Below are positions 1 to 50,756 of a stretch of DNA of 54,989 nt, one piece after another; positions within the stretch are counted from its first letter, which is position 1; every line of letters begins with the position of its first letter. The DNA is from a virus, in IMG/VR virus record IMGVR_UViG_3300049989_000072, positions 1-54,989 of that record; one strand, given 5' to 3'. Under the pieces are notes generated by a model, which saw nothing but the letters and a program-made list of their open reading frames with translations, did not search any database and was not told where the DNA came from. Position numbers and translations under genes: made by a program.

Positions 1-127
1 AAGCACTACGGTGTCAAGGGGATGAAGTGGGGCGTTCGCAAGGATCGAGTCAAGAAGGCTCGCAAGCCCAAGCGCACTCCGTCCGAGCAGCACATCGAAT
101 CTCGGAAGATCAAGCGCAAGAAGCTTT
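1..127. repeat. terminal overlap; identical to nt 54863-54989 (circular closure)
   Basis: Both ends read AAGCACTACGGTGTCAAGGGGATGAAGTGG...ATCAAGCGCAAGAAGCTTT. The exact 127-nt identity is typical of an assembler k-mer overlap on a circular contig. Confidence 0.9.
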
Positions 128-345
128 CCGAGATGTCCAACGACGAGATCGCAACTCTCAATCGTCGTCTGCAGCTGGAGAGCCAGTACGCAAAGCTCAA
201 CCCCAACGCCTACCAGCGGGGTCGATCTGTCATCAACGAGTTTACCTCGGCGGTGAACACAGCAAACACGATTGCGTCGCTACCGACAAGCCCTCTGGGT
301 AAGGCGGTAATTGCCGGCGCCGGCGAGATCAAGGGCAAGTGGTAG
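1..345 (+). CDS. 3' part of the junction-spanning GNAT gene with two HYGVKGMKWGVRK motifs (5' part is 54200..54989)
   Basis: The frame of track ORF 22..345 is open back to nt 1. It is in phase with the open frame 54200..54989 once the 127-nt overlap is collapsed. It encodes KHYGVKGMKWGVRKDR plus a K/R-rich tail and ends at TAG 343-345. Confidence 0.6.
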   Translation, partial: KHYGVKGMKWGVRKDRVKKARKPKRTPSEQHIESRKIKRKKLSEMSNDEIATLNRRLQLESQYAKLNPNAYQRGRSVINEFTSAVNTANTIASLPTSPLGKAVIAGAGEIKGKW

Positions 346-376: not shown

Positions 377-2131
377 ATGGCGCTGTCAAACACGGCAGTC
401 CCGAAGTACTACGGTCAGTTTCGGGACCAGGTGCTGCGTCATGAGATTCCGGTAAACCGGGAAGTCGGTCTCGAGATGAATCGAATCGACGAACTTATCG
501 CTAACCCTCTCTTCTACTACGACGATAAGGCAATCGACGGCTTTATCAACTTCTGTGAGGCAGAGCTTACTCTCACGGATGGTTCAGATCTTCAGCTTCT
601 CGATACATTCAAGCTGTGGTCCGAGCAGATCTTTGGTTGGTACTACTTCACAGAGCGTGAGGTGTGGCAGCCAGGAAAGAATGGACGCCCCGGTCGCTTT
701 GTGACCAAGGTCGTCAAGCAGAGGCTTGTCAAGAAGCAGTATCTTATCGTTGCACGTGGTGCCGCGAAGTCGATGTATGCTTCTTGCCTCCACAACTACT
801 TCCTCACGGTCGACACGGAGACCACTCACCAGATTGCGACGGCTCCGACGATGGCGCAGGCCGAAGAGGTCATGTCACCCATTCGTACTTCGATCACGAG
901 GGCTCGAGGACCTTACTTCCAGTTCCTGACGGACGGTTCTCTCCAGAACACCACCGGCAGTCGGTTCAATCGACAGAAGCTCTTCTCTTCCAAGAAGGGT
1001 GTCGAGAACAACTTGACCAACTCTCTACTTGAAGTTCGTCCAATGACGAAGGACAAGCTCCAGGGTCTTCGGTCAAAGATCAACACCATCGATGAGTGGC
1101 TCTCCGGAGACGTTCGCGAGGACGTGATCGGCGCTCTCGAGCAGGGCGCGTCGAAACTCGAAGACTATCTGATCGTTGCCATCTCTTCGGAGGGAACGGT
1201 CCGCAATGGTAGCGGCGATAGCATCAAAATGGAACTTCAAAAGATCCTCAATGGTGACTACTACGACCCGCACACCTCAATCTGGCACTACAAGCTCGAT
1301 GACATCAAGGAAGTCAACGACCCTTCGATGTGGCTGAAGGCTCAGCCAAACCTCAACCGTACCGTAACGTACGAAACCTACCATCGAGACGTTGAGAGAG
1401 CAGCTCAGGCTCCCGCAGCGCGAAACGACATCCTCGCCAAGCGCTTCGGAATTCCCATGGAGGGCTTCACCTACTTCTTCAGCTATGCTGAAACCGAAGT
1501 CTTTAGTGCACAGAGGCCTCGGGCGTACGATGGCATGGTCGGTGCGATGGGTGCGGACCTTTCGCAGGGTGATGACTTCTGTGCATTTACCTTCCTATTC
1601 CCTCTTCCCGACGGACGCTTTGGGGTCCAGGTCAGAAGCTACATCTCTCAGAAGACTCTTGACAATCTACCAGGCGCAACCCGTCTGAAGTACAATGAGT
1701 TCCTTGCAGAAGACACTCTTCATGTCCTCGAAGGCAGCGTCATTGATCTTGACGTGGTCTATGAGGACATCGACGCCTTTATCACGGACCACAAGTACGA
1801 CATTGCGGCGTTTGGGTATGACCCTTACAACGCAAACGAGTTCGTCAAGCGCTGGACGACTGAGAATGGACCTTTCGGGGTCGAGAAGGTCATTCAGGGC
1901 TCGAAGACCGAGTCCGTCCCCCTGGGGGAGCTCAAGAACTTCAGTCAGGACCGTCAGCTTGTCTTCACGGAGAAGCTGATGTCCTACGCGATGGGTAACG
2001 CCATCACGCTCGAGGACACCAACGGAAACCGCAAGCTGTCGAAGCTTCGCCACGAGAACAAGATCGATAATGTCTCCGCACTGATGGATGCTTACGTTGC
2101 GTGGAAGCGCAACCGCGAAGCGTTCGAGTAG
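377..2131 (+). CDS. terL: terminase large subunit
   Basis: ATG 377 is preceded by GGAGGG. There is a Walker-A-like 'IVARGAAKS' and C-terminal acidic nuclease-type motifs (GADLSQGDD, GYDPYNANEF, DNVSALMDA). Size (584 aa) and position upstream of the portal fit. Confidence 0.8.
   Translation: MALSNTAVPKYYGQFRDQVLRHEIPVNREVGLEMNRIDELIANPLFYYDDKAIDGFINFCEAELTLTDGSDLQLLDTFKLWSEQIFGWYYFTEREVWQPGKNGRPGRFVTKVVKQRLVKKQYLIVARGAAKSMYASCLHNYFLTVDTETTHQIATAPTMAQAEEVMSPIRTSITRARGPYFQFLTDGSLQNTTGSRFNRQKLFSSKKGVENNLTNSLLEVRPMTKDKLQGLRSKINTIDEWLSGDVREDVIGALEQGASKLEDYLIVAISSEGTVRNGSGDSIKMELQKILNGDYYDPHTSIWHYKLDDIKEVNDPSMWLKAQPNLNRTVTYETYHRDVERAAQAPAARNDILAKRFGIPMEGFTYFFSYAETEVFSAQRPRAYDGMVGAMGADLSQGDDFCAFTFLFPLPDGRFGVQVRSYISQKTLDNLPGATRLKYNEFLAEDTLHVLEGSVIDLDVVYEDIDAFITDHKYDIAAFGYDPYNANEFVKRWTTENGPFGVEKVIQGSKTESVPLGELKNFSQDRQLVFTEKLMSYAMGNAITLEDTNGNRKLSKLRHENKIDNVSALMDAYVAWKRNREAFE
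1224..1234 (+). repeat. TCAAAATGGAA 11-mer, copy 2
   Basis: Exact 11-mer inside terL; its ATG is in frame (..SIKMELQ..). Confidence 0.9.
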
Positions 2132-2136: not shown

Positions 2137-2147
2137 TCAAAATGGAA
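2137..2147 (+). repeat. TCAAAATGGAA 11-mer, copy 3
   Basis: Exact 11-mer; its ATG (2142) is the start of motif protein 1. Confidence 0.9.
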
Positions 2148-2528
2148 TCAAATCTTGATGACTTCCTCATGCATTACGGTGTCAAGGGGATGAAGTGGGG
2201 CGTTCGCAACAAGAAGCCCTCTAAGCGGCTCGTTCGCAAGGCCAAGAAGATCCGGGAGCGCCGAGAAAAGCTTCGAGAAGATTCGATCAAGGAGCAGCAC
2301 GCCTATCAAAGGAAGCTGAATCAGCAGCAGGCACTTCGAATCGTCCTCGGGCTTGTTCAAAAGCGCTCTCGGATGAAGCTCAATGAGATCAATCTCGATT
2401 ATGCGCGAAAGCACAAGGTCAAGGAGATGATCGATGCAATGGGCGGCCTTCCCGTGGCCGACACTCCAACCGTACTCAACGCCACACCCACGAATGGTGT
2501 GTACGACATCACAAGCCTAGGGAGGTAA
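2142..2528 (+). CDS. HYGVKGMKWGVR-motif protein 1 (short, basic)
   Basis: N-terminus is MESNLDDFLMHYGVKGMKWGVRNKK, followed by a K/R-rich helical region. The ATG lies inside a TCAAAATGGAA 11-mer, with AGAGGA upstream. Confidence 0.7.
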   Translation: MESNLDDFLMHYGVKGMKWGVRNKKPSKRLVRKAKKIRERREKLREDSIKEQHAYQRKLNQQQALRIVLGLVQKRSRMKLNEINLDYARKHKVKEMIDAMGGLPVADTPTVLNATPTNGVYDITSLGR

Positions 2529-2535
2529 GCTCCGA

Positions 2536-3651
2536 ATGTCTCAAGAGCTTGACGACTTCCTTATGCACTACGGTGTCAAGGGAATGAAGTGGGGTGTCCG
2601 TAAGGACGATGGTCTGAATCGCAAGGAGCGACGAAAGGCAAAAGAAGAGGCTCGCAAGAAGCTCCCCAAAGAAGTCAAGAAGGGGGTCAGTAATGCCGAC
2701 CTCTTGTTCAAGACCGCGAAGGGTCGCCGGTACGCAGCTTCGTTGAAGCGTCAGATCGAAGCCGATGCCGCAGAGATCGCAAAGAACAACACGAAATTTC
2801 TGGCTAAGGGCGGATTCACCGACGCCGATGTCACTCCGGAGCAGAAGCGTAAGAAGCTTACTCCGCAAGAAATTGCGTGGCTTGCGGTTGCCGGTACCAG
2901 TCTTGCTGTGGTTGCGGCGGCATACGCCTATGATCCCATCAAGAATGCGGTACAAAAGCGAATCGTCGCCAATGTCAAGCCGGGCGACAAAGTTTCTTCC
3001 GGAAACTACACAGAGCTGGTCCATGGCAGCAAGTCGAGGACTTGGCGAGGTAAGAAGGCTGGTGGATATTTCCAGCCAGAAGCTCTGGAGCGCAAGGAAT
3101 TTGAGATTCCCGCGGGAACCACATTCCATCGAATTTCTCGAAAGCCGGAAACCACCTTTCGGTCGGAGACCGGTACCTACGCAACCCACTCGACCGAAGA
3201 CTTCAATCGCTATGTGAACTCTTTTCGTAAAGAGCTTGGTTCCGTCGAGCTGCATCATGTACAGTTCAAGGCGAAGCAGCCCGTTCGTGTTTCGGACTAC
3301 AAGACAAACTCCAGAGCTATGGCTATGGCCATGGAAGGTCGCGTTTCGTCTCAGAGTCCCGTAACGCTGGAAGAAGGCGCAAAGAGATTCCGAGCCGAAG
3401 CCGGTGGGTCGTGGCATCGAGTGGGTTTTAGCGACCCCAGCAAGCCCACCACTGTCCAGAGTTTCTTTGAAATTCTTGAGCACAAGGGTTATGGCGCACT
3501 TGTCGACGAAATGGACGCGGGGGTCATTGGTGAAACCCCTCTGATGGTCTTTGCAAATCGGCTTTTTGACACAAAGTCTTCTTCGGAACTCACCCCCGAG
3601 ATGATTGCTGCTGCTCAGCGAGCGCTCATCGAGATCAACAATAGAAAGTAA
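2536..3651 (+). CDS. HYGVKGMKWGVR-motif protein 2 (basic region, hydrophobic helix, unknown C-terminal domain)
   Basis: N-terminus is MSQELDDFLMHYGVKGMKWGVRKDD, with a hydrophobic helix IAWLAVAGTSLAVVAAAYAY. I cannot place the ~230-aa C-terminal domain. Confidence 0.7.
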   Translation: MSQELDDFLMHYGVKGMKWGVRKDDGLNRKERRKAKEEARKKLPKEVKKGVSNADLLFKTAKGRRYAASLKRQIEADAAEIAKNNTKFLAKGGFTDADVTPEQKRKKLTPQEIAWLAVAGTSLAVVAAAYAYDPIKNAVQKRIVANVKPGDKVSSGNYTELVHGSKSRTWRGKKAGGYFQPEALERKEFEIPAGTTFHRISRKPETTFRSETGTYATHSTEDFNRYVNSFRKELGSVELHHVQFKAKQPVRVSDYKTNSRAMAMAMEGRVSSQSPVTLEEGAKRFRAEAGGSWHRVGFSDPSKPTTVQSFFEILEHKGYGALVDEMDAGVIGETPLMVFANRLFDTKSSSELTPEMIAAAQRALIEINNRK

Positions 3652-3662
3652 GGAGGGGTCAC

Positions 3663-4823
3663 ATGGAAGAACCTCTTGACGACTTCCTTGCTCACTATGG
3701 AGTCAAGGGGATGAAGTGGGGTGTCCGTAAGGACGACGATACCCCCAAGGAGCCTCGAAAGACCCGCGCCGAGAAGAAGATCGAACGCGCAAAGGCCCAA
3801 AGAGAGCGTCGCGAGCGACGTGTGGGCAAGATCCAAGGTCGAGTCAACATCATGGAGACCCGTGTCTCCGAGCTCAACAAGATCGCGGAGACGACAAAGA
3901 ACCCCTTCCGTCGAGCCATGGCCGTAGGTGATGTCAAAGATCTCAAGAAGGATATTCGGAAGTCCCAGAAGGACATCAAGGCAATTCGTGCTGGAAAGTT
4001 CACGGACACCGAGAAAGCGCTCCTTATTGGTGGCGCCACGCTGGCCACTGCAGCTCTCGCATACGGTACTTACAAGGGTATTGAGACTGGCGACTTCCGA
4101 CGTCTTGCCGCAAAGGGTAAGGCCGCTCTCCAGCTTCGAGACCACGTGGACTTCAAAGAGAACAAGGAATTCGCCAACAAGAACTACACGGAGAATGATA
4201 TTTTCCATCGAGTAGTTACCGGAATCAATCCGGGTTGGGGCGATGAGCCTGGAACCTCGATGAACTGTCGTCGGGCTACGCTTGCGTACGAGATGCGTCG
4301 CCGAGGCTACAACGTCAAGGCAACAAAGACGCTTACCGGCGCCGGTCAGACCCCTTTGGGCATGGGAAACGTTCTCGCGAGAGGGGAAAACGCTCCCGAG
4401 CGCGGCGTTCTTTCGTTTGTCTCTAAGACGTTTAGCGAAACCATGGAAAAGTCGAAAAACCCGCAAGCAAAGACGCCGAACCTTGATCTCTCAAACCGAA
4501 TCAAGGCAAGTGGGTCTTGGGGCGCACAGCGAGTTTGGCGCGCGGACGACAATAGTCCCGGAATCCTCGATGCTCTCAGCAAACTTCCTAACGGTGCTCG
4601 AGGTGAGCTCGGTATGAAGTGGAAGATGGGTGGCGGACACAGCATGGCGTGGGAGATCATCAACGGAAAGCCTGTCATCTTTGACACGCAGGTTCTTCAG
4701 CGATACAATACGCCCGAGAAGTTTGAGGAACTCCAGAACATGCTTGAGGAGGCCGCTATTACGCGTCTCGACAACGTCCAACTCAACGAGGACTTCCTCC
4801 TAAGGTGGCTGCAGAATGCTTGA
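3663..4823 (+). CDS. HYGVKGMKWGVR-motif protein 3 with a C-terminal papain-fold toxin-like (Tox-PL1-like) domain
   Basis: N-terminus is MEEPLDDFLAHYGVKGMKWGVRKDD, with helix ALLIGGATLATAALAYGTY. The C-terminus has 'SMNCRRATLAYEMRRRGY' ... 'GGGHSMAWEIINGKPVIFDTQ', a Cys/His/Asp pattern of papain-fold polymorphic-toxin domains. Confidence 0.65.
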   Translation: MEEPLDDFLAHYGVKGMKWGVRKDDDTPKEPRKTRAEKKIERAKAQRERRERRVGKIQGRVNIMETRVSELNKIAETTKNPFRRAMAVGDVKDLKKDIRKSQKDIKAIRAGKFTDTEKALLIGGATLATAALAYGTYKGIETGDFRRLAAKGKAALQLRDHVDFKENKEFANKNYTENDIFHRVVTGINPGWGDEPGTSMNCRRATLAYEMRRRGYNVKATKTLTGAGQTPLGMGNVLARGENAPERGVLSFVSKTFSETMEKSKNPQAKTPNLDLSNRIKASGSWGAQRVWRADDNSPGILDALSKLPNGARGELGMKWKMGGGHSMAWEIINGKPVIFDTQVLQRYNTPEKFEELQNMLEEAAITRLDNVQLNEDFLLRWLQNA

Positions 4824-5055
4824 TCGTCAAGAAGCGACGCTTGTCGTTCAGAAGAACCTTCCCGAGGGTGACATCCAGAATCTCATCGAGTACCAAGATC
4901 TTTACGTCTTCCAGGTCTTTTCCCCAGACCCCGACGAAGGTCAGTACGACCCGTTCTTCTCCGTTCACATGGAGACCGGCGAGTTTCGAGATTTCTCTAT
5001 CCTCAAGGATGGGAATACAGCCCAGATCATCGCTCTCTTCCTCGAGGAAGACTAG
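4816..5055 (+). CDS. small acidic protein; candidate immunity partner of the preceding toxin-like domain
   Basis: The 79-aa ORF overlaps the upstream stop (ATGCTTGA). The function rests only on the toxin-then-small-ORF arrangement. Confidence 0.4.
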   Translation: MLDRQEATLVVQKNLPEGDIQNLIEYQDLYVFQVFSPDPDEGQYDPFFSVHMETGEFRDFSILKDGNTAQIIALFLEED

Positions 5056-5084: not shown

Positions 5085-6344
5085 GTGAGTTTCCGAGATC
5101 GCTTGGCTCATGCAGCCAACGCGTTCGTCCGTAATGACCGAGAGCTTGCTCGGCCGCCGGTAGACTATGGTCCGAGCTACTTTGCTCGCCCAGATCGTCG
5201 TCGAGCAGTATCTCCGACCGATCGCTCGATCGTTTCGTCGATCTACACGCGAATCGGCATCGATGTCACCGCCGTCGACATGCGACACGTTGTGCTCGAT
5301 CAAAATGGAAGATTCTTGAAGTTGAAGGAGAAGAGCGGACTCAACGTTTGTCTCTCTCTGGAAGCCAACATCGACCAGGCAGCTCGACACTTCATGCTGG
5401 ATGCCGTTCTCACGCTCTTTGATGAGGGTGTGGTGGCTCTCGTACCCATCGACACGTCTGTGGATACCACGGACACGGGCGCTTTCGACATCCACTCCAT
5501 GCGAGTCGGGAAGATCACGGGATGGTACCCGGAGCACGTTCGAGTCGACGTCTACAACGAGAAGACAGCTCAGCACGAAGAGCTCATTCTCCTGAAGCGA
5601 AGCGTCGCGATCGTCCAGAACCCCCTCTGGAACGTGATGAACGAGCCAAACTCGACTCTGCAGCGTCTGATTCGGAAGCTTGCTCTCATTGACTCCGTCG
5701 ACGAGCAGACGAGCTCGGGTAAGCTGGACATCATCATCCAGCTGCCCTACACCGTGAAGACGCAGACGAAGCGAGACCAGGCGGAGACCCGCCGAACCGA
5801 ACTTGAGCGCCAGATGAAGGACTCGAAGTACGGTATCGGCTACATCGACGGCACCGAGCGAATCACGCAGCTCAACCGTCCGGCGGAGAACAACATGCTT
5901 CGGCAGGTCGAGTACCTGACCAACATGCTGTACTCGCAGCTTGGTATCACCGAGGCCGTGTTCAACGGTACGGCTGACGAATCCGAGATGCTCAACTACT
6001 ACAACCGGACGATCGAGCCCCTCCTGACTGCTTTCCAGCAGGCAATGGAGCGCTCGTTCCTGACGAAGACGGCAAGGACGCAGCGGCAGGCTATTCGCTT
6101 CTATCGCGACCCGTTCAAGCTGGTTTCGATGGAGAAGATCGCCGAGATCGCGGACAAGTTCACGCGCAACGAGATCGCATCCTCCAACGAGATGCGTGGC
6201 GCAATCGGTATGGCTCCTTCCACGGATCCCAAGGCCGACGAACTCCGCAATGCGAACATGCCCCAGCCCAAGGACGAGGAAAAGCCGTCCGTGAAGCCAA
6301 CAGAGGAAGGAAGCCTTCAAAATGGAAGACGGCCGGAAGCCTGA
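5085..6344 (+). CDS. portal protein (putative)
   Basis: GTG start lies 8 nt after AGGAGG. The 419-aa ORF sits between the terminase block and the protease-capsid gene. The call rests on position, size and general portal-like composition. Confidence 0.6.
   Translation: MSFRDRLAHAANAFVRNDRELARPPVDYGPSYFARPDRRRAVSPTDRSIVSSIYTRIGIDVTAVDMRHVVLDQNGRFLKLKEKSGLNVCLSLEANIDQAARHFMLDAVLTLFDEGVVALVPIDTSVDTTDTGAFDIHSMRVGKITGWYPEHVRVDVYNEKTAQHEELILLKRSVAIVQNPLWNVMNEPNSTLQRLIRKLALIDSVDEQTSSGKLDIIIQLPYTVKTQTKRDQAETRRTELERQMKDSKYGIGYIDGTERITQLNRPAENNMLRQVEYLTNMLYSQLGITEAVFNGTADESEMLNYYNRTIEPLLTAFQQAMERSFLTKTARTQRQAIRFYRDPFKLVSMEKIAEIADKFTRNEIASSNEMRGAIGMAPSTDPKADELRNANMPQPKDEEKPSVKPTEEGSLQNGRRPEA
5300..5310 (+). 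repeat. TCAAAATGGAA 11-mer, copy 4
   Basis: Exact 11-mer inside the portal gene; the ATG is out of frame. Confidence 0.9.
6317..6327 (+). repeat. TCAAAATGGAA 11-mer, copy 5
   Basis: Exact 11-mer; its ATG (6322) is the start of the protease-capsid fusion. Confidence 0.9.
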
Positions 6345-8505
6345 TTTCTCAGGCTACGCCACTAAGGCGGGACTTCTGTGCACGGATGGTCGTACCATCA
6401 CGCCAGAGGCCTTTGCCCACCAGGATGGACTCACTGTCCCTCTCGCCTGGTCACACAAGCAGGGTGCGCCTGCCAACATCCTCGGTCACGGCGTGCTTTC
6501 TGCGCGTCCCGACGGTATGTGGGTAGACGCCTACTTCAACGAGACTACCATGGCTAAGGATGCCAAGGAGCTCGTGCGCCACGGGGACATTCGGTCCCTC
6601 TCCATCCTCGCAAATCAGCTCGAGCACCGTGGTTCCCACGTGGTGAAGGGTCAGATCAACGAGGTGAGCCTGGTTGTCCAGGGGGCGAACCCGGGTGCGT
6701 TCATCGAGGAAGTCTCGCTGGCGCATTCGATCAACGGTGTCGACGTCGTCGATGCCATCATCTACGCGGACCAGCCGCTGGAGCTCTCCGACGAGCTGAG
6801 GCATTCTGCCTCGGACGACGAGGATGAGTTCGAGGGTGAGGATGTTCTGGAGCACTCCAATCAGGAGATCTTCGACAGCCTCACCGACGAGCAGCGGGAG
6901 TTCGTTGGGACTCTTCTCGGGGATGCGCTCAAGCATTCCGCGTCCAATGAGGACGAGGACGAGGACAACGATTCGGAGGAGACCGACATGGCCGACGAGG
7001 TCAAGCACGAGGTTGCCATCGACGAGAGCAAGACCGTTCAGGAGATCCTGGACAGCTTCTCGCCGGAGCAGCTCCGCGTCGTGGAGGGTCTGATCGGTCA
7101 GGGCATCGAGAACGCACTTGCTGCGATCGACGATGATGACGCCGATGACGACAAGAACGACGACACCAAGGACGACAGCGCGGAGCACTCCGCAGCTGAC
7201 GAAGACAACCAGCTCGCACACGCCCACCAGGAGGGTAACACCATGACCATGAAGAACGCTTTCGACGAGGCGAAGAAGGAGCAGCACGGCTCCACGCTGT
7301 CGCACAACCAGCTCGACGTCGACCAGCTCGAGGCGATCCTCGGCCAGGCCAAGTCGTCGTCGAACGGTTCGACGCTGCACGAGTCCTTCCTCGCGCACGC
7401 CGGCACGTACGGCATCGACAACATCGATCTGCTCTTCCCCGACTTCAAGACCCTTCAGTCGACGCCCGAGTTCCTCTCGCGTCGCATGGAGTGGGTCAGC
7501 CACGTCTGGGGCTCGATCAAGCGCGCACCCTTCACGCGCATCAAGTCGGTCTTCGCCGACATCACCACCGAGGAGGCTCGTGCGCGAGGCTACGTCACCG
7601 GTGACCTGAAGAAGGACGAGGTGTTCAAGCTCCTCGACCGCAAGACCACGCCGCAGACCATCTACAAGAAGCAGAAGCTCGACCGCGATGACATCCTCGA
7701 CATCACGGACATCGACATCATCGTCTGGCTCAAGGCCGAGATGCGCATCATGCTCGACGAGGAGATCGCCGGCGCGATCCTGATCGGTGACGGCCGCGAG
7801 GTCGACTCGCCCGACAAGATCAAGGAGGACCACCTCCGTCCGATCGCCTCCGACCACGAGATGTACGCTCACCCGGTGAACGTCGCCTCGAACACGGAGC
7901 CGCGTCAGCTCGTCAAGACGATCCTGCGTTCGCGCAAGCACTACAAGGGCTCCGGCACGCCGACGCTCTACACGACGGACGACACCCTCACGGACCTCAT
8001 CCTCATCGAGGACCGCATGGGCCGTCGCCTCTACGAGACGGAGCAGTCCCTCGCGGCAGCTCTTCGCGTGAAGGACATCGTCGTCGTCGAGGTCTTCGAC
8101 CGCGCACCCGACGTCATGGCCATCATCGTGAACCTGCTCGACTACACCGTCGGTGCAGACCGCGGTGGCGCCGTCACGTTCTTCGAGGACTTCGACATCG
8201 ACTTCAACCAGCAGAAGTACCTGCTGGAGACGCGCATCTCGGGTGCGCTCACGAAGGCGAAGTCGGCTCTCGTGTTCCGCCGCACCGCCGGCACCGTCGT
8301 CACGGCTGAGGAGCCCACGTTCGACAACACGGACAACACGCTGACCATCCCGACGGTCACGGGCGTCCAGTACCGCATCGACGACCAGAACGCAGCTGCC
8401 GGCGACCGTGTGATCACCGAGGGCGTCGACGTCACGGCACACGCCAAGGCCGGCTACCAGCTCGCCGACGGCTCGACCAAGTCCTGGTCGTACGAGCCCG
8501 TCTGA
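6322..8505 (+). CDS. prohead protease - acidic scaffold - major capsid protein fusion
   Basis: The N-terminus is HK97-type S78 protease-like (PLAWSHKQG..ILGHG.., SLSILANQ, INEVSLVVQGANPGAFIEE). A D/E-rich linker with a duplicated EI(F/L)DS..EQ segment follows, then a ~420-aa capsid-like C-terminal part. Confidence 0.75.
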   Translation: MEDGRKPDFSGYATKAGLLCTDGRTITPEAFAHQDGLTVPLAWSHKQGAPANILGHGVLSARPDGMWVDAYFNETTMAKDAKELVRHGDIRSLSILANQLEHRGSHVVKGQINEVSLVVQGANPGAFIEEVSLAHSINGVDVVDAIIYADQPLELSDELRHSASDDEDEFEGEDVLEHSNQEIFDSLTDEQREFVGTLLGDALKHSASNEDEDEDNDSEETDMADEVKHEVAIDESKTVQEILDSFSPEQLRVVEGLIGQGIENALAAIDDDDADDDKNDDTKDDSAEHSAADEDNQLAHAHQEGNTMTMKNAFDEAKKEQHGSTLSHNQLDVDQLEAILGQAKSSSNGSTLHESFLAHAGTYGIDNIDLLFPDFKTLQSTPEFLSRRMEWVSHVWGSIKRAPFTRIKSVFADITTEEARARGYVTGDLKKDEVFKLLDRKTTPQTIYKKQKLDRDDILDITDIDIIVWLKAEMRIMLDEEIAGAILIGDGREVDSPDKIKEDHLRPIASDHEMYAHPVNVASNTEPRQLVKTILRSRKHYKGSGTPTLYTTDDTLTDLILIEDRMGRRLYETEQSLAAALRVKDIVVVEVFDRAPDVMAIIVNLLDYTVGADRGGAVTFFEDFDIDFNQQKYLLETRISGALTKAKSALVFRRTAGTVVTAEEPTFDNTDNTLTIPTVTGVQYRIDDQNAAAGDRVITEGVDVTAHAKAGYQLADGSTKSWSYEPV

Positions 8506-9192: not shown

Positions 9193-9948
9193 ATGAGCAA
9201 GATCAAGTGGGATCAGGTAGGCGAGCGCAAGTTCGAGAACGGCGTCGACCACGGCGTCCTCTACCTTCCCGACGAGACGGGTGTCTACGACACCGGCTTC
9301 GCATGGAACGGTCTCGTGTCGGTCACGGAGAAGCCCTCGGGCGCCGAGCCGACCCCCGTCTACGCGGACAACATCAAGTACATCACGCTGATCTCCGCCG
9401 AGGAGTACGCAGCGTCGATCGAGGCCATCACCTACCCCGACGAGTTCATGCTCTGCGACGGTACGGCTGAGGTTTCGGTGGGCGTCTACGCCGGTCAGCA
9501 GGCTCGTCGAGCGTTCGGTCTCTCGTACCGCACGAAGATCGGCGATGACCTGAGCCCGGAGCGTGGGTACAAGATCCACCTCATCTACGGCGCGCTCGCA
9601 GCGCCCACGGAGAAGGCCCACACGACCATCAACGACTCGCCCGAGGCCGCCACGTTCACGTGGGAGCTCTCGACGACGCCGGTGGAGATCGAGGGCTTCA
9701 AGCCCACGGCCTCGCTGGTCATCGACTCGACCAAGGTCGACGCGGCGAAGCTGAAGACGCTCGAGGACCTGCTGTACGGCACGGCTTCCTCCGAGCCCTC
9801 GCTCCCCACGCCCGATGAGGTCGTGGCGATCTTCGGCGCAGCCCCCGCAGGTGCTCAGACGATGGGGACCCAGTCGTTCTCCAACTCGGAGGACAACTCG
9901 ACGGACTTCGAGGTCCAGTCGGGCGGCGACGCCGACAACGCGTTCTAA
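9193..9948 (+). CDS. major tail (tube) protein, copy 1
   Basis: AAGGAGCAAC lies upstream. N-terminus 'KWDQVGERKFENGVDHGVLYLPDETG..FAWNGLVSVTEKP' is a tail-tube-type opening as I recall it. The position before the chaperone and tape measure fits. Confidence 0.55.
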   Translation: MSKIKWDQVGERKFENGVDHGVLYLPDETGVYDTGFAWNGLVSVTEKPSGAEPTPVYADNIKYITLISAEEYAASIEAITYPDEFMLCDGTAEVSVGVYAGQQARRAFGLSYRTKIGDDLSPERGYKIHLIYGALAAPTEKAHTTINDSPEAATFTWELSTTPVEIEGFKPTASLVIDSTKVDAAKLKTLEDLLYGTASSEPSLPTPDEVVAIFGAAPAGAQTMGTQSFSNSEDNSTDFEVQSGGDADNAF

Positions 9949-10536: not shown

Positions 10537-11337
10537 ATGGCAACCGTAGAGTGGAATAAAATTCCTGATCGAACCTTCCAATACGGCGTTGATCGTGGCG
10601 TCCTCTATGTCGAAGGCTCTCCTGGGGTTCCTTGGAACGGTCTTCTCCGGGTTGACGAGAAGACCGAAGGCGCTCAGCTTCGTCCGGTCTTCATGGAAGG
10701 TCGATTGATCGATCAGGTTAGCTATCCGGGAAACTTCTCAGGTGCAATTTCGGCTATCACCTACCCCGACGAGTTCGAGCTTTGCGATGGATACGCTGTC
10801 TCTGCCGACGGCCTCATGCTGAGTCATCAGCCTCGCAAGAAGTTCTCTCTCACCTACCGGACAAAGGTAGCAAACCCTCTGACCCAAGAGCTCGCTAACC
10901 GAATTCACCTCATTTTTGGTGCTCGGATTGCCCCAACAGATCGATCGAACGCTTCTGTGGGTACAAACGTCAACCCCCTAGCGTTTAGCTGGCCCGTATC
11001 GGCCGTTCCTGCTATATTCACGGATCGTCGTCCCACGGCTCATGTAATTGTGGACTCTCGACTGGTGGATCCCTCGGCATTCAGCATGCTCGAGGATATT
11101 CTCTACGGAACCGACACCACAAACCCTCGATTTCCCACCCCCGCCGAGATTACGTCGCTGATGAAGCTTCGTGGCCTTGTCTTTGCGCTGGGATCTTCCG
11201 GTACGAGCGCTATCATCAAGCTTGGTCAGCCGGCCGAACTTGTCGGCGACCCCCTTGTTGGTGTTTATCGTACGACAGAGAATTCTCCTCTGGTTGCCGT
11301 TCCGGGCAGACCTGACATCTATCGATTGGAGCTGTAA
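10537..11337 (+). CDS. tail-tube paralog (copy 2)
   Basis: ATG follows AGGAGGTGTC. 'EWNKIPDRTFQYGVDRGVLYVEGSPGVPWNGLLRVDEK', 'AITYPDEFELCDG', 'FSLTYRTK' and 'EDILYGT...PTPAEI' are collinear with the 9193 protein. Confidence 0.5.
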   Translation: MATVEWNKIPDRTFQYGVDRGVLYVEGSPGVPWNGLLRVDEKTEGAQLRPVFMEGRLIDQVSYPGNFSGAISAITYPDEFELCDGYAVSADGLMLSHQPRKKFSLTYRTKVANPLTQELANRIHLIFGARIAPTDRSNASVGTNVNPLAFSWPVSAVPAIFTDRRPTAHVIVDSRLVDPSAFSMLEDILYGTDTTNPRFPTPAEITSLMKLRGLVFALGSSGTSAIIKLGQPAELVGDPLVGVYRTTENSPLVAVPGRPDIYRLEL

Positions 11338-18775: not shown

Positions 18776-19183
18776 ATGGATGTAACCAAGGGCACCAGCC
18801 TGATCACCACGCAGAGCACCTACGACACCTGGAAGGACATCATCACGATCGTCTTCCCCGGTGCAGGAGCGCTGTACGCCGGACTCGCGCTCATCTGGGG
18901 CTTCCCGTTTGCCGAGGAGGTCGTCGGAACCATCGCTCTGATCGTCACCTTCGGCAGCATCCTGCTCAAGGTGGCGTCCAAGCAGTACGAGAACGCCCAG
19001 CCGGCACCTCCTCTCGAGGGTGGAATGGTGGTCGTCAACACGACGAGCATTTCCGCAGACCCTGTCTCCGCAAGCTTCACGGTCGACCCCCTCACCCTTC
19101 CCACTGGCACGGACCTTCTGATGACGGTTCGCAACGACAGCAACCCCGACGAGCTTCCCGATAACGCGCCCTCGCAGGACTAA
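18776..19183 (+). CDS. holin, Dp-1 family-like, with a C-terminal extension
   Basis: 'YDTWKDIITIVFPGAGALYAGLALIWGFPFAEEVVGTIALIVTFGSILLKVASKQY' parallels the Dp-1 holin signature (YD.LK......P....LY..L..IWglP....i.gT......FLG). AAGGAGAAAAC lies upstream. Confidence 0.6.
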   Translation: MDVTKGTSLITTQSTYDTWKDIITIVFPGAGALYAGLALIWGFPFAEEVVGTIALIVTFGSILLKVASKQYENAQPAPPLEGGMVVVNTTSISADPVSASFTVDPLTLPTGTDLLMTVRNDSNPDELPDNAPSQD

Positions 19184-19205
19184 CACGTCCTATAGTGAGA
19201 CCCCC
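19170..19205 (+). promoter_or_regulatory. promoter-like motif P1 (CCTCGCAGGACTAACACGTCCTATAGTGAGACCCCC)
   Basis: One of nine copies in identical register (21 nt from the first C to TATAGT). It overlaps the holin 3' end, 20 nt upstream of GTG 19225. Confidence 0.55.
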
Positions 19206-19623: not shown

Positions 19624-19658
19624 TCTCGCAGGATCTACAGGCCATATAATGAGACCCC
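19624..19658 (+). promoter_or_regulatory. promoter-like motif P2 (TCTCGCAGGATCTACAGGCCATATAATGAGACCCC)
   Basis: Same register; the hexamer here is TATAAT. It follows the strong terminator at 19538-19589 and precedes ATG 19685. Confidence 0.55.
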
Positions 19659-19983: not shown

Positions 19984-20019
19984 CCTCGCAAGATTTACAG
20001 GGCCTATAGTGAGACCCCC
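19984..20019 (+). promoter_or_regulatory. promoter-like motif P3 (CCTCGCAAGATTTACAGGGCCTATAGTGAGACCCCC)
   Basis: Near-consensus copy that precedes ATG 20039. Confidence 0.55.
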
Positions 20020-20735: not shown

Positions 20736-20738
20736 CTC

Positions 20739-20909: not shown

Positions 20910-20912
20910 CGT

Positions 20913-20930: not shown

Positions 20931-20932
20931 TA

Positions 20933-22040: not shown

Positions 22041-22043
22041 ATC

Positions 22044-47480: not shown

Positions 47481-48027
47481 GCATTCCTTTCTTAGCCCCA
47501 GCCAGCACCATTGGATCAACGACACGGACGAGAAGTTCGACCGTCGATTCATGAAGCGGCTGTCCACGCTACACGGAAGCCAGCAACACGAGTTCGCCGC
47601 CTCCGCCATTCGCTTGGGCATCCGCCTCGCCGAATCGGAGCAGACGCTCAACCGTTACGTCAACGACTGTATCGGATTCCGCATGGAGCCCGAGGTCATG
47701 CTAGTCGCTGACGAGCACTTCGCCTTTGGCACCGCCGATGCGATCAAGTACCTCAGGCCTCACGGAGATCGCCGTGGCCTACTGAAGATCTTCGACCTGA
47801 AGACCGGTGAGACCCCCACCTCGTTCGTTCAGCTTGTCATCTACGCTGCGTTCTTCTGCATCGAGTATGACGTCAAGCCCATGGACATCGACTACGAGTT
47901 CAGGATCTACCAGTCCGACGACATCAAGATCTTCATCCCCGACCTCGACGACATCGTGAAGGCCTACTCCACGATCGTCAATCGCATCCGACGGATCTAT
48001 GACCTTCAGAGGGAGGTGTCCCTGTGA
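47446..48027 (+). CDS. PD-(D/E)xK (Cas4/RecB-like) nuclease
   Basis: 'SFLSPSQHHW', 'FGTADAIKYL....LLKIFDLKTGE....QLVIYAAFF' resemble the exonuclease motifs. Confidence 0.5.
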   Translation: MHFHDHSVLEGRHSFLSPSQHHWINDTDEKFDRRFMKRLSTLHGSQQHEFAASAIRLGIRLAESEQTLNRYVNDCIGFRMEPEVMLVADEHFAFGTADAIKYLRPHGDRRGLLKIFDLKTGETPTSFVQLVIYAAFFCIEYDVKPMDIDYEFRIYQSDDIKIFIPDLDDIVKAYSTIVNRIRRIYDLQREVSL

Positions 48028-50756
48028 CCGATGAGACCCATGTCAACGCCGACGAGATGATGGACGAAAGTCTCGCTCACTATGGCATTCTTCGTCGTTC
48101 CGGTAGGTACCCTTGGGGTTCCGGTGAAAACCCCTACCAGAACAACATGAACTTCCTGGCGTACGTCTCCGAACTTCAGAAGAAGGGTTGGAGCGAGAAG
48201 CAGATCGCCGAGGGCCTTGGTACCACTACCGGAGCTCTTCGCGATGCTAAGAAGATCGCCAAGACCGCCAATCGAGCCGCAGACCAGTCCCAGGCCCAGC
48301 GCCTCAAGGAGCGTGGGTGGTCGAACGTCGCCATCGGACAGCGAATGGGCATCAACGAGTCGTCGGTTCGCCAACTTCTCGCCCCGAGCAACCGAATCAA
48401 GAACGACAAGCTCCAGTCCACCGCAAATGCGATCCAGAAGCGTGTGGATGAGGTCGGCTACATCGATGTGGGTGCTGGAACCGAGCTTTACCTCGGTGTG
48501 AGTGCCACGCAGCTCAAGACTGCCGTCACCAAGCTCCGTGAAGAGGGTTACACGTACCATTACGTCGACATGCCTCAGCTCGGAACGGGTAAGGACACCC
48601 TCATGAAGGTGTTGGCCAAGCCTGGTATCGACGGCAAGACGATGTACGCCAACAAGCACCTCATCGAGCCCATTGCGGTCTACTCGGAGGACGGTGGTCG
48701 AACCTTCCTAGGCATCGAGAAGCCCAAGCAGGTCGATCTCAACCGCATTGAGGTTCGGTATGGGCCTGATGGCGGTGACGACAGGGACGGAATCATCCAG
48801 CTTCGCCGCGGAGTCGATGACATCTCCCTCGGCGCCTCGAAGTACGCTCAGGTTCGCATCCAGGTGGACGACACCCACTACCTCAAGGGCATGGCTGTCT
48901 ATACAGACGACCTTCCTGATGGCGTGGACATCCGCTTCAACACGAATAAGACCCGTGAGGAAGCTCCCACCAAGCTCGATGCGATGAAGCCGCTCAAGTC
49001 GGACGAAGACAACCCCTTCGGTGCCGTTGTTCGACAGAAGCACTACCTCGACAAGGACGGTAAGCGACAGCTTTCTGCCCTGAACATCGTCGGCGCCATG
49101 AACACCGAGGGTGGCGAAGAGGGTGCCTGGCGAAAGTGGTCTCGAAACCTGTCTTCCCAGATGCTTTCCAAGCAGTCTGCGCCTCTGGCCAAGCAGCAGC
49201 TCGGCATCGCAGGTGATCGTAAGCGCGCAGATCTTGATGAGATCCTCGCTCTGAACAACCCTGCCGTCAAGAAGAAGCTTCTCGATGGTATGGCTGACGA
49301 TCTCGATGCAGCAGCGGCCCACCTCAAGGCAGCCGGTCTTCCTCGAACCGCGTCTCACGTTCTCCTCCCCTTGACCACCATCAAGGAGACCGAGATCTAT
49401 GCACCCAACTACCGAGATGGCGAGCGAGTCGTTCTGATTCGTCACCCTCATGGTGGTACCTTCGAGATTCCCGAGCTCACGGTCAACAACCGTAACCGTG
49501 AAGCTGGTCGAATCATGAAGGGTGCGCAAGACGCAGTTGGCATCAACCCCAAGGTTGCCCAGCAGCTGTCGGGTGCCGACTTCGATGGCGATACCGTTCT
49601 GGTCATCCCGAACAACAATAAGGCTGTGAAGACTTCCTCCCCTCTCGAGGGCCTGAGGAACTTCGACCCCAAGACGGAGTACCGTGAATACCCTGGTATG
49701 AAGCGGATGTCCTCTGAGGGTACGCAGCTGAAGATGGGTGACATCTCCAACCTGATCACGGATATGACTATCCAGGATGCAACGGAAGCAGAGCTCGCTC
49801 GTGCTGTTCGTCATTCCATGGTGGTCATCGATGCAGAGAAGCACGGCCTCAACTACCAGCAGTCTGCCAAGGACCATGGTATTGCCGAGCTCAAGCGCAA
49901 GTACCAGGGCGATGCCCGTGCTGGTGCCGCAACTCTCATCTCTCGTGCCACCTCCCAGCAGAGGGTGGATGCTCGCAAGCCCCGGCCTGCAGCAGATGGT
50001 GGTCCTGTGGACCCGGAGACGGGTGAGCGTCGTTTCGTCCCCACCGGCGAGACATACGAGCGCCCCGTACGGGACCGCAAGACCAAGGAGATCATCGGCA
50101 CTGAGACGGTCAAGAAGACCCTCACCTCCACCAAGATGGCAGAGACCACCGATGCTCGAACTCTGAGCTCCGGGACTGTGATGGAAGGTGTGTACGCCGA
50201 CCATGCCAATCGTCTCAAGGCCATGGCCAATGAGGCCCGGAAGGCATCGCTTGCAATCAAGCCCATCCCCCAGTCGGCGTCTGCAAAGACCGCCTATGCC
50301 AAGGAGGTAAGTACCCTCCGGGATAAGCTAGATACGGCCCTCCGTAATAAGCCCCTAGAGCGCCGGGCCCAGACAGTCGCCAACATGATCGTCAAGGCCA
50401 AGCGGGATGCAACCCCCTCTATGGATGCGGCTGATCGTAAGAAGATTGCAGGGCAGGCCCTTGCAGAGGCGAGGCTCAGGGTCGGTGCACACAAGGCCCG
50501 TGTTGTGTTCACACCTCGTGAGTGGGAAGCTGTGCAGGCTGGTGCAATCAGCAACTCCTTCCTCACCCAACTGTTGAGCAATGCAGATCTCAATGAGGTA
50601 CGCCAACTGGCCACACCTCGTGACAGACCTGCCATCTCAGCAGCCCTCCTGGCCAGGGCACAGACCATGCTGTCTTCGGGTAACTACTCACAGGCAGATG
50701 TGGCTGATGCACTGGGTGTCAGTGTTAGCACTCTTAACACAGCGCTTCACGGATAG
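48024..50756 (+). CDS. candidate single-chain two-barrel RNA polymerase (YonO / crAss-vRNAP / RdRP-like) with HTH modules
   Basis: 'THYLKGMAVYTDDLPDGVDIRFNTN' resembles the beta DPBB (HGNKGV..EDMP..G..VDIVLNP). 'RVVLIRHPHGG...AVGINPKVAQQLSGADFDGDTVLVI' resembles the beta' DPBB ([11 protein letters not shown]...[24 protein letters not shown]). HTH-like 'WSEKQIAEGLGTTTGAL', 'WSNVAIGQRMGINESSVRQLL' and 'YSQADVADALGVSVSTLNTAL' are present. Confidence 0.55.
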   Translation: MTDETHVNADEMMDESLAHYGILRRSGRYPWGSGENPYQNNMNFLAYVSELQKKGWSEKQIAEGLGTTTGALRDAKKIAKTANRAADQSQAQRLKERGWSNVAIGQRMGINESSVRQLLAPSNRIKNDKLQSTANAIQKRVDEVGYIDVGAGTELYLGVSATQLKTAVTKLREEGYTYHYVDMPQLGTGKDTLMKVLAKPGIDGKTMYANKHLIEPIAVYSEDGGRTFLGIEKPKQVDLNRIEVRYGPDGGDDRDGIIQLRRGVDDISLGASKYAQVRIQVDDTHYLKGMAVYTDDLPDGVDIRFNTNKTREEAPTKLDAMKPLKSDEDNPFGAVVRQKHYLDKDGKRQLSALNIVGAMNTEGGEEGAWRKWSRNLSSQMLSKQSAPLAKQQLGIAGDRKRADLDEILALNNPAVKKKLLDGMADDLDAAAAHLKAAGLPRTASHVLLPLTTIKETEIYAPNYRDGERVVLIRHPHGGTFEIPELTVNNRNREAGRIMKGAQDAVGINPKVAQQLSGADFDGDTVLVIPNNNKAVKTSSPLEGLRNFDPKTEYREYPGMKRMSSEGTQLKMGDISNLITDMTIQDATEAELARAVRHSMVVIDAEKHGLNYQQSAKDHGIAELKRKYQGDARAGAATLISRATSQQRVDARKPRPAADGGPVDPETGERRFVPTGETYERPVRDRKTKEIIGTETVKKTLTSTKMAETTDARTLSSGTVMEGVYADHANRLKAMANEARKASLAIKPIPQSASAKTAYAKEVSTLRDKLDTALRNKPLERRAQTVANMIVKAKRDATPSMDAADRKKIAGQALAEARLRVGAHKARVVFTPREWEAVQAGAISNSFLTQLLSNADLNEVRQLATPRDRPAISAALLARAQTMLSSGNYSQADVADALGVSVSTLNTALHG

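Follow-up and report, generated by a model that had tools for sequence, protein, structure and literature searches.

DUF7211, a short repeated leader peptide encoded around the terminase gene, as a candidate capsid-loading signal in a siphophage lineage

The DUF7211 peptide, a leader of ~20 residues with an acidic lead-in, is on balance probably a capsid-loading or ejection leader of the siphophage lineage described here, although the case is circumstantial. The placement of its genes, the effector-like nature of its cargo and the 'structural protein' labels of two relatives in Lactococcus phage 1706 make this the best explanation; the presence of multiple and internal copies in one polypeptide, which a simple N-terminal signal would not need, counts against it. 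Bases 1-127 of the window (the whole stretch of DNA analysed, 54,989 nt) recur as bases 54863-54989, which makes it a circularly assembled genome of 54,862 bp; the phage is a siphophage of the Lactococcus-1706/actinophage "RNAP" supercluster. The canonical leader, DDFLxHYGVKGMKWGVRK, occurs in five copies in four ORFs that flank the large terminase gene (Table 1).

Table 1. Position and assignment of the features discussed in the text.
Feature	Coordinates	Strand	Evidence and remarks
335-aa ORF, end	1..345	+	1-127 duplicates 54863-54989
Large terminase subunit	377..2131	+	phrog_9, E 3e-107; DUF7211 genes on both sides
128-aa DUF7211 protein	2142..2528	+	PF23847 E 1e-14, net charge +15
371-aa DUF7211 protein	2536..3651	+	PF23847, phrog_7502
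386-aa DUF7211 protein	3663..4823	+	PF23847; predicted deamidase-type C-terminus
79-aa acidic ORF, putative immunity protein	4816..5055	+	overlaps deamidase stop codon
Portal protein, candidate leader receptor	5085..6344	+	phrog_12, E 4e-37
Prohead protease-major capsid fusion	6322..8505	+	phrog_3270, E 2e-219
910-aa single-subunit two-barrel (YonO/RdRP-like) RNA polymerase	48024..50756	+	phrog_4291 E 0, full length
335-aa ORF, first 263 codons	54200..54989	+	two PF23847 stretches, E 5e-29; spans assembly junction

The six motif instances in five proteins listed in a preliminary description of this DNA are all present where it had placed them, the copy at nt 1-44 being the copy at 54857 seen again through the terminal duplication. 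That description had taken the leader for an undescribed family, which is only half right: all four canonical ORFs match Pfam PF23847 (DUF7211; a 25-position HMM with a gathering score of 27 bits) at E 1e-14 to 5e-29, the three single-copy ORFs with 54.1, 55.3 and 55.7 bits and the two-copy ORF with 99.7 bits over two stretches, but the Pfam entry gives no function, and in the literature searched we found neither a function nor a mention of DUF7211. The family comprises 31,204 clusters at 50 % identity. Cargo domains surveyed across 180 members are effector-like and include GNAT, 2H/LigT phosphoesterase and ADP-ribosyltransferase; judged by these matches, the cargo is predicted to be toxin- or effector-like.

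Conservation acts on the peptide. A back-translated 29-nt pattern gave 6 matches (5 unique sites) against 0 expected from 100 shuffles, and the start codon directly 5' of every N-terminal copy is served by a good ribosome-binding site. Identity at the nucleotide level had been put at 36-47 nt; long runs do exist, but the actual range between copies is 14-47 nt, the 47-nt run being found only between two copies within one ORF and a 35-nt run in two pairs, while other pairs share merely 14-20 identical nt. Runs of 35-47 nt between some copies would fit an element acting as DNA or RNA, be it a hotspot of recombination, a regulatory site or a signal for translation, with the conserved peptide as its by-product. 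The copies differ, however, mostly by synonymous third-position changes (6 synonymous codons to 2 non-synonymous ones in one comparison, 7 to 1 in another), hence the leader is conserved at the protein level, and the peptide persists in phages as far apart as those of Lactococcus and Streptomyces, whose phyla differ in codon usage. The synonymous pattern effectively refutes an element at the DNA or RNA level, to which we assign a negligible likelihood.

One conserved leader with variable cargo, encoded beside terminase and portal, is an architecture that holds for the window and extends to hundreds of related loci. A terminase homologue is nearby in 142/159 loci with a motif ORF; in 114/133 loci no more than 400 nt separate the end of a DUF7211 ORF from the terminase gene downstream of it, and in 72/107 at least one DUF7211 ORF lies between terminase and portal. 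Within the protein, the motif histidine occupies residues 10-12 in most of ~310 gene-called family members, and 207 of the 239 ORFs from IMG/VR loci have the motif inside their first 30 aa. A minority of the genes follow tail genes (L105, L150, L163); in L129 and L162 their neighbours are genes for DNA polymerase and helicase and the motif lies at residue ~173, and in Blautia and Lachnospira elements they are found beside replication genes. Genes outside head modules would suit a motif that has nothing to do with the virion, that is, a host-factor binding, localisation or turnover motif (for membrane targeting, as a chaperone or protease adaptor, or as a secretion signal) on host-takeover enzymes that are encoded late by chance. 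The disorder of the motif in isolation fits this too, and made inside the infected cell the cargo enzymes would be no less useful. Some members have transmembrane-like helices and a membrane-protein annotation and could act in the membrane of the producing cell, which counts against a loading leader. We nevertheless regard a virion-unrelated role as improbable: gene placement between the connector, terminase and portal genes is tight and near-universal, homologues that include the polymerase are annotated as structural proteins, late expression would be mistimed for takeover enzymes unless these are packaged for the next infection, and the putative immunity gene implies that the toxin must stay inactive in the producing cell.

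The sole experimental support for a place in the virion comes from GenBank product names in Lactococcus phage 1706, in which both ORF7 (with two copies of DUF7211, its gene adjoining that of the terminase on the upstream side) and ORF75 (the polymerase, with the variant leader) are named 'structural protein'; the labels in ReqiPepy6 and ReqiPoco6 were given by similarity to 1706 and are not independent. The polymerase of the window matches PF05183 weakly (E 0.003), a DFDGD catalytic motif (DxDGD loop) can be read in its translation, and homologues have been given the same two-barrel assignment (bioRxiv 10.1101/842583). Its variant leader, 'DESLAHYGILRRSGRYPWGSG', spans residues 14-34 (nt 48063-48125) and is the diverged sixth instance. 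The polymerase N-terminus has no match to PF23847 at E<=1, and four observations place it as a related variant outside that Pfam family: (i), hhalign aligns the DUF7211 profile with the polymerase N-terminal profile at a probability of 94.8 % (E 5e-8), with a 4-residue insertion; (ii), the two profiles are mutual best non-self matches in a six-frame scan of the window; (iii), 'DDILMHYGVKRRSGRYPWGSG', from the bridging polymerase homologue L127, matches the canonical HMM at E 6e-4; and (iv), the motif is kept in all polymerase homologues read.

Downstream of the motif, DUF7211 proteins carry a strongly basic helical segment of 50-90 residues. The K/R-rich helical region previously noticed is borne out in the window, where the four proteins have net charges between +15 and +19 and residues 29-91 of the 371-aa protein are predicted by AF2 to be helical, and family-wide the 50 aa after the motif average +6.4 +/- 3.2 against a background of -0.5, with 98 % of 420 DUF7211 proteins net positive (median +17). 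The hydrophobic helix ascribed to two proteins is found in the 371-aa and 386-aa proteins, and a hydrophobic 19-mer in 91/420 members. In the AF2 model of the 371-aa protein the cargo domain is predicted with confidence but the motif stays unstructured (pLDDT below 50), which fits a peptide that folds upon binding a partner. One candidate electrostatic partner of the basic proteins, judging from charge, is the protease-capsid fusion, whose linker is extremely acidic (net charge -45 over residues 151-300); an acidic window occurs in all 97 homologues, with a median of -32.

The same features have to be weighed against a reading in which DUF7211 proteins are in the virion and the motif is a structural or post-ejection element rather than an addressing tag, such as a small beta-hairpin by which the proteins oligomerise or hold on to packaged DNA, or which enters the host envelope as the DNA passes in; the conserved pre-terminase protein would then serve as pilot or channel, and the paralogues with enzyme domains would be fusions to it. 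In favour of this reading, the proteins are as extremely basic as DNA-binding internal proteins and some bear the hydrophobic 19-mers; the most conserved member is moreover the small pre-terminase protein, with its second conserved helix motif and Gly/Ala-rich hydrophobic tail, and the 1706 annotation fits equally well. Two observations make a structural element unlikely in our view. The polymerase, which has DNA-binding HTH domains of its own, bears the leader-like motif without the basic and hydrophobic segments, which argues for a function of the motif itself, and a placement so rigidly N-terminal is seen more typically in signals than in structural repeats.

How the leader is repeated is best seen in the 335-aa ORF, which runs from leader 1 (54209-54270) through a GNAT acetyltransferase (PF00583, 48.8 bits against a cut-off of 20.7, residues 79-164) to leader 2 (54848-54909), and ends in a basic segment, a conserved 'LSEMSNDEIATLNRRLQLESQYAKLNP' motif and a Gly/Ala-rich tail. 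The C-terminal cargo had been described as none, unknown, papain-fold or GNAT; the GNAT in fact sits between two motif copies, whereas the papain-fold assignment stands through its PF15644 homologues. The end of the ORF, its pre-terminase module, is the core DUF7211 protein of the lineage, with orthologues directly upstream of the terminase gene in 114/133 loci and ORF7 as its counterpart in phage 1706; the fusion of GNAT and pre-terminase modules in the window corresponds to JoyLin gp11 alone, the modules being fused or separate depending on the phage. Proteins with 2-4 copies are common and reach 1,469 aa, the copies lying at module boundaries with a median spacing of 202 aa, the length of one module. 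This periodicity, the occurrence of the same modules as separate genes in some phages and as fusions in others, and the protease that the phage encodes fused to its capsid protein would all be accounted for if the motif were mainly a prohead-protease recognition or cleavage site that splits [motif-module]n polyproteins during maturation; the capsid targeting sequence of T4 offers a precedent, uniting targeting and cleavage in one element. Most copies, however, are at the very N-terminus, where only 3-8 residues could be removed, and no residues upstream of internal copies are conserved beyond the motif and its acidic lead-in. Cleavage as the main function is thus doubtful, though it is compatible with a capsid-loading leader.

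The three single-copy proteins differ in what follows the leader. The 128-aa protein, whose gene has a ribosome-binding site and an ATG 11 nt past the terminase stop codon, consists of leader (nt 2154-2215), basic helix and short C-terminal tail, with no recognisable cargo domain. In the 371-aa protein, the leader (nt 2548-2609) and basic helices are followed by hydrophobic helices (~110-145) and an alpha/beta domain (~150-371), modelled by AF2 at a pLDDT of 82.7 for the full length and 94.6 for the domain alone. The modelled fold of this domain weakly suggests (TM 0.35-0.42, E >= 1e-3) an ART/RES-like toxin, an assignment for which we found no sequence-family match. Its best PDB fold match by Foldseek is a cyanophage A4 pre-ejectosome chain (9k3a_B, E 1e-3, weak at TM 0.38); MbcT follows with prob 0.97 but a TM of only 0.35-0.43, and diphtheria/Chelona toxin and ParT are further weak matches (diphtheria-toxin family E 0.15-1), while BFVD returned paralogues in related actinophages and an ART-PolyVal-like protein (E 0.04). 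R199, D222, R225, Y226, D324 and D327 are invariant. Compared by sequence with the PDB, neither the 371-aa nor the 386-aa protein had a significant match.

The 386-aa protein is built of leader (nt 3675-3736), basic coiled region, Gly/Ala-rich hydrophobic helix and a C-terminal domain that is predicted to be a papain-fold glutamine-deamidase-type toxin of the PF15644 family. The protein itself reaches only E 0.03 against PF15644, below the cut-off, but PF15644 and PF23847 occur together in ~30 of 120 homologues listed, at 40-50 % identity to it, and C202, H326 and D341 are invariant in 71 homologues. The 79-aa ORF that follows has no Pfam, PHROG or NCBIfam match; in 165 loci its homologues occur only directly after the genes for the deamidase's four closest homologues (L142, L146, L060 and L130), a pattern that suggests a putative cognate immunity protein. 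No candidate immunity gene accompanies the other DUF7211 paralogues.

T4 packages an ADP-ribosyltransferase, Alt. The T4 internal proteins are diverse and have only the capsid targeting sequence in common (PMC3012670); as in DUF7211 proteins, this sequence (in IPI/II/III and Alt) is a short N-terminal leader on otherwise unrelated small basic proteins with diverse anti-host or anti-defence cargo, which are packaged in the head and injected with the DNA, a step that in the DUF7211 phage we infer. The two leaders share no sequence similarity: that of T4, a myophage, docks on the scaffolding core, and gp21 removes it (PMC3012670), whereas the carriers of DUF7211 are Gram-positive siphophages with a protease-capsid fusion, and DUF7211 can be repeated in one polypeptide and, in a variant form, heads an RNA polymerase. 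MuF toxins (PMC5576092) combine a conserved N-terminal head-associated module with variable C-terminal toxins, deamidase- and ART-type included, from genes that adjoin the portal gene and are sometimes followed by an immunity gene, a pattern that the predicted deamidase and its putative immunity ORF would fit; their MuF domain (PF04233) is, however, ~100-300 aa long instead of a 20-aa peptide, and there is one per genome against several paralogous leader proteins in the DUF7211 phage. The MuF/SPP1 gp7 domain PF04233 has no match at E<=1 in the five leader-bearing proteins.

For the polymerase, the systems to compare are N4 vRNAP and phi14:2 gp66 (bioRxiv 10.1101/2020.03.07.982082; PMC11445570), also single-chain phage polymerases, which travel in the virion so that transcription can begin; packaging of an RdRP-like polymerase is described for crAss-like phages (bioRxiv 10.1101/2020.03.07.982082), and the gp66/YonO type shares with ours the two-barrel RdRP-like class and a DxDGD-type catalytic loop. 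N4 and the crAss-like phi14:2 are podoviruses while the phage here is a long-tailed siphophage, for whose lineage the 1706 annotation alone points to packaging, and its polymerase, unlike theirs, has a leader common to other putative internal proteins. Podophage ejection proteins (T7 gp14-16; cyanophage A4 gp26-29, PMC12002296) and P1 Dar proteins (PMC12810830, PMC9024508) are internal head proteins on or near the portal, with basic DNA-contacting surfaces and embedded enzymatic domains, that are released at infection. A chain of the A4 pre-ejectosome is, as noted, the weak best fold match of the 371-aa cargo, and, in the PDB sequence comparisons mentioned, no homology between DUF7211 proteins and the ejection or Dar proteins was detected.

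The capsid-targeting or ejection role suggested in the preliminary description thus has circumstantial support, from the 1706 structural labels, the toxin- or effector-like cargo and the co-conserved putative immunity ORF, and we propose that it could operate as follows. During procapsid assembly, the leader would bind a conserved component of the head, be it the portal or the protease/scaffold portion of the protease-capsid fusion, and the basic segment would pair with the acidic scaffold-like linker of that fusion. The prohead protease would then remove the acidic linker, and may also cut multi-module proteins at leader junctions; as DNA enters the head, the basic segments would remain bound to it. 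At infection, DUF7211 proteins would exit with the DNA through portal and tail into the host, perhaps aided in membrane crossing or docking by the Gly/Ala-rich hydrophobic helices. Siphophages are thought to form a channel with the tape-measure protein, and to our knowledge there is no described precedent for a 100-kDa polymerase passing through a long siphophage tail. Once inside, the deamidase, ART/RES-like and GNAT proteins (and, in relatives, the 2H phosphoesterase) would act on host targets or defence signals, the injected polymerase would transcribe from nine phage-specific promoter-like repeats, and the 79-aa ORF would have protected the producing cell until the deamidase toxin was packaged.

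Leader-directed head loading is well characterised in few systems, mainly in phages of Gram-negative hosts (T4 CTS, P1 Dar, MuF fusions), and the match between very basic cargo and a very acidic linker in the protease-capsid fusion points to a loading mechanism that can be tested. Confirmation of the leader role would give a function to a 31,000-cluster domain of unknown function, would allow injected anti-host and anti-defence effectors to be read from sequence in actinophages, lactococcal phages and many phages of gut Clostridia, would mean that siphophages with long tails are able to bring an RNA polymerase of their own inside the virion, and would provide a compact tag to package foreign proteins into phages of Gram-positive bacteria. 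More tentatively, and with somewhat less confidence than we place in the leader role itself, DUF7211 might be a general 'zip code' with which a very large siphophage lineage of Gram-positive hosts labels its injected proteome. Any carrier would then be taken up into the capsid and reach the host through a long non-contractile tail, be it a 100-kDa two-barrel RNA polymerase, an NAD+-targeting or deamidase toxin, a GNAT or a 2H phosphoesterase, and the motif alone would predict injected effectors over >30,000 protein clusters.

The motif (D/E)DFLxHYGVKGMKWGVRK occurs in five canonical copies spread over four ORFs of the window, all of which match the Pfam family PF23847 (DUF7211; 54-100 bits against a cut-off of 27), and each N-terminal copy is directly preceded by a start codon with a ribosome-binding site. 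The back-translated pattern finds six matches at five unique sites, 0 being expected from shuffles, and a diverged sixth copy opens the RNA polymerase, which bears out the preliminary description of a repeated leader. That description had not recognised the leader as a described family: it is in fact already catalogued as DUF7211, but as a family without function or literature, since searches for 'DUF7211' and for the motif strings returned no relevant paper; NCBIfam has no model for it either. The conservation claimed at the nucleotide level is seen in identical runs of 14-47 nt between copies, but the differences are mainly synonymous and fall on third codon positions, so the constraint acts on the peptide and not on the DNA. 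This pattern effectively refutes a nucleotide-level element, to which we attach a negligible probability, and a DNA-level repeat or recombination element was rejected on the same grounds. A type VII secretion signal of the WXG/LXG kind was set aside by reasoning only, the motif having 'WG' rather than W-x-G and the genes lying in head modules.

Bases 1-127 of the window recur exactly at 54863-54989, which makes it a circular or terminally redundant assembly; once circularised, the genome has 54,862 bp (57 % G+C), and one DUF7211 ORF spans the assembly junction. Megablast and tblastn assign it to the supercluster of Koert et al. (bioRxiv 10.1101/842583), whose members are Arthrobacter, Gordonia, Rhodococcus, Microbacterium, Streptomyces and Curtobacterium phages; Lactococcus 1706-like and Faecalibacterium phages also fall within it. 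Apart from the head genes, the tail region holds two tandem 180-nt units (76 % identity) that are probably an internal duplication of a tail or tape-measure gene, and a 39-nt stretch recurs at a spacing of 1.3 kb with 87 % identity, in agreement with a pair of paralogous major-tail-type genes such as Curtobacterium phage JoyLin is annotated to have.

Positions of genes and repeated elements in the window and in two relative loci
Feature	Position	Strand	Remarks
335-aa DUF7211 ORF	54200 across junction to 345	+	
Large terminase	377-2131		
Three DUF7211 ORFs	2142-2528, 2536-3651, 3663-4823		after terminase
79-aa acidic ORF	4816-5055	+	overlaps stop codon of deamidase-toxin gene; before portal
Portal	5085-6344		
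Protease-capsid fusion	6322-8505		
39-nt repeat	9423-9461, 10752-10790		
Tandem 180-nt units	14534-14893		tail region
29-nt element copies	19172-19200, 19626-19654, 19986-20014, 20623-20651, 22705-22733, 24972-25000, 35711-35739, 46039-46067, 46357-46385	+	intergenic
27-nt element copies	20715-20741, 20910-20936, 22020-22046, 23391-23417, 25360-25386, 25587-25613, 28236-28262, 52922-52948		
910-aa YonO/RdRP-like two-barrel RNA polymerase	48024-50756	+	DFDGD motif, HTH domains at both ends
Lysis genes			between polymerase and connector
Connector	53836-54207		PF24829
L129 (Blautia faecis isolate), DUF7211 protein	7482-8447		copy HSGVKGMKWGVRNGPPYPI at residue ~173; neighbours DNA polymerase/primase and helicase genes
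L162 (Lachnospira hominis isolate), DUF7211 protein	7479-8429		same copy and neighbours

Searched as a profile, the motif retrieves, at the level of 50 %-identity clusters, 31,204 representatives at E<=1e-3 and 1,983 at E<=1e-10, with its His at residues 10-12 in most gene-called members. The top-scoring members are proteins of up to 1,469 aa with two to four copies; the median distance from one motif to the next in multi-copy proteins is 202 aa, so that each opens a module, and upstream of internal copies conservation is limited to an acidic lead-in. That the motif marks prohead-protease cleavage sites in polyproteins strikes us as improbable, and would in any case be compatible with a loading leader. 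Genomic context was taken from 159 loci with 420 motif ORFs (80 IMG/VR loci, 75 from GTDB species genomes and four from annotated phages). With the window's terminase as reference, a terminase homologue is nearby in 142 of the 159; a DUF7211 ORF ends at most 400 nt upstream of the terminase gene in 114/133 loci, and at least one lies between terminase and portal in 72/107, with a maximum of seven per locus. Exceptions to this placement are a few loci with DUF7211 genes after the tail genes, and two Lachnospiraceae elements with an internal copy in a protein encoded beside DNA polymerase and helicase genes. In the latter two the copy follows a His-rich phrog_20637 domain (HIHRNPHHWQHW), a context unlike the head module.

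The protein encoded directly upstream of terminase (window 1-345) and its orthologues carry a second motif, LSxxELxxxxxRxxLExxYxxL, 40-60 aa past the leader, and beyond it a Gly/Ala-rich hydrophobic tail. Pfam has no model for this second motif, which is found in JoyLin gp11, the C-terminus of ReqiPoco6 gp015, 1706 ORF7 and Psst4 gene 3; motif and tail together characterise the lineage's core pre-terminase DUF7211 protein. It is unlikely to be the missing small terminase subunit: it has a hydrophobic tail, and its 1706 counterpart is deposited as a structural protein of the virion, in which small terminase subunits are not usually found.

The leader is always followed by a strongly basic stretch, the next 50 aa having a net charge of +6.4 +/- 3.2 against a background of -0.5, and 98 % of the 420 DUF7211 proteins are net positive (median +17). 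The K/R-rich helical region noted earlier is confirmed in the window, where the four proteins have net charges of +15 to +19 and AF2 places helices at 29-91 of the 371-aa protein; in that model the motif ahead of them is unstructured (pLDDT below 50), and behind them come hydrophobic helices (110-145) and a confidently predicted C-terminal domain. This alpha/beta domain, modelled on its own (pLDDT 94.6), has as best Foldseek match in the PDB a cyanophage A4 pre-ejectosome chain (E 1e-3, prob 0.99, TM 0.38), followed by the RES-type NAD+ phosphorylase toxin MbcT (prob 0.97), diphtheria/Chelona toxins, ParT and Xre-RES; the full-length model gave only matches at E >= 0.14. In BFVD, relatives have several paralogues of the domain per genome, with a weak ART-PolyVal-like match. 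From these models we propose, with low to moderate confidence, an ART/RES-like fold; PDB sequence searches with the 371-aa and 386-aa proteins gave no significant match.

The 386-aa protein carries a papain-fold glutamine-deamidase toxin domain: its own PF15644 score is only E 0.03, the family is present in many homologues at 40-50 % identity, and Cys202, His326 and Asp341 are invariant among homologues. No cargo domain is recognised in the 128-aa protein, and GNAT, previously listed as a C-terminal cargo, instead sits between the two leader copies of the 335-aa ORF. Among 180 other members, tabulated from the IMG/VR loci and the representative search, cargo comprises 2H/LigT phosphoesterase, GNAT, PF15644, one ADP-ribosyltransferase exotoxin, one HTH and one CW_7 protein. 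Most members have no known domain; a motif-profile search of a 5.8-billion-protein set gave only DUF7211-only proteins <92 aa and is uninformative on cargo. The small acidic ORF behind the deamidase gene matches no known family, and its homologues occur in only four fetched loci, where each directly follows one of the four closest homologues of the deamidase. It is likely an immunity protein, judging from this toxin-immunity pair pattern, which would imply that the deamidase is an active toxin whose action has to be restrained in the cell that makes it.

The polymerase starts with 'DESLAHYGILRRSGRYPWGSG', a diverged copy that the Pfam search misses. Three observations tie it to DUF7211: (i), profile-profile comparison aligns the two leaders with a four-residue insertion (probability 94.8 %, E 5e-8); (ii), in a six-frame scan of the window the two profiles are each other's best non-self match; (iii), one polymerase homologue, L127 ('DDILMHYGVKRRSGRYPWGSG'), matches the canonical HMM (E 6e-4). 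The leader is kept in every polymerase homologue examined, from Streptomyces to Lactococcus phages, and in the phage collection the genera with polymerase and with motif are essentially identical (Arthrobacter 95/95, Streptomyces 54/53, Curtobacterium 7/7, Microbacterium 4/4). Rather than an address tag, the motif could also be an element of virion proteins with a role in structure, oligomerisation or membrane/DNA anchoring; this seems unlikely to us, because the polymerase has the leader but lacks the basic segment, a combination that speaks for an independent function of the leader.

A 29-nt element, TCGCAAGA-N10-12-CTATAGTGAGA, occurs nine times, where 0 copies are expected by chance, and the series begins directly behind the structural module; CCCC often follows, and the 3' half of the element resembles a T7-type promoter core. 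The copies probably serve the phage's own single-subunit RNA polymerase as promoters, in keeping with an injected enzyme that would start transcription. Separately, a 27-nt element, TTCTCTTGAAAGGAGAAC(N)ATG, is present eight times just before start codons; it takes in a short inverted repeat (TTCTC...GAGAA) along with the ribosome-binding site and may serve the non-structural genes as a conserved signal for translation initiation or RNA structure.

In Lactococcus phage 1706, ORF7, directly upstream of the terminase gene, has two DUF7211 copies and an 'LSxxELxxxxxRxxLExxY'-type helix and is deposited as 'structural protein', as is the polymerase homologue ORF75 with its variant leader. These labels reportedly derive from a 2008 virion SDS-PAGE and mass-spectrometry study by Garneau and colleagues; those of Rhodococcus phages ReqiPepy6 and ReqiPoco6 were assigned by similarity to 1706 and are discounted as independent evidence. 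We give little credence to a virion-independent role, in which the motif would bind a host factor or localise proteins inside the cell. On balance, DUF7211 is probably a loading leader for the procapsid, whose proteins leave with the DNA at infection: the context statistics, cargo types, putative immunity gene, polymerase link and homologue annotation make this earlier capsid-targeting and ejection reading plausible and support it in part. The leader would dock the proteins inside the assembling procapsid and supply specificity, while the basic segment would ride on the acidic, scaffold-like linker of the protease-capsid fusion. This partner is suggested by an acidic window between protease and capsid domains in 97/97 fusion homologues (median -32; residues 151-300 of the window's fusion, net -45 over 150 aa), which mirrors the uniformly basic DUF7211 proteins across the lineage. 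Removal of the linker by the protease would then let the basic segments bind packaged DNA, and the loaded proteins would exit with it through the long tail.

Portal-adjacent position and variable toxin domains are shared with the MuF polymorphic toxins (PMC5576092), but the defining MuF domain is absent from the window proteins in Pfam, so they are not MuF members. The closest functional parallel is the T4 capsid targeting sequence. We know of no shared leader described for the packaged polymerases of crAss-like phages. Packaging of an RdRP-like polymerase is described in these podoviruses (bioRxiv 10.1101/2020.03.07.982082), and the deposition of 1706 ORF75 as 'structural protein' suggests a virion-borne polymerase in a siphophage, which, once injected, would start transcription from the nine promoter-like elements.
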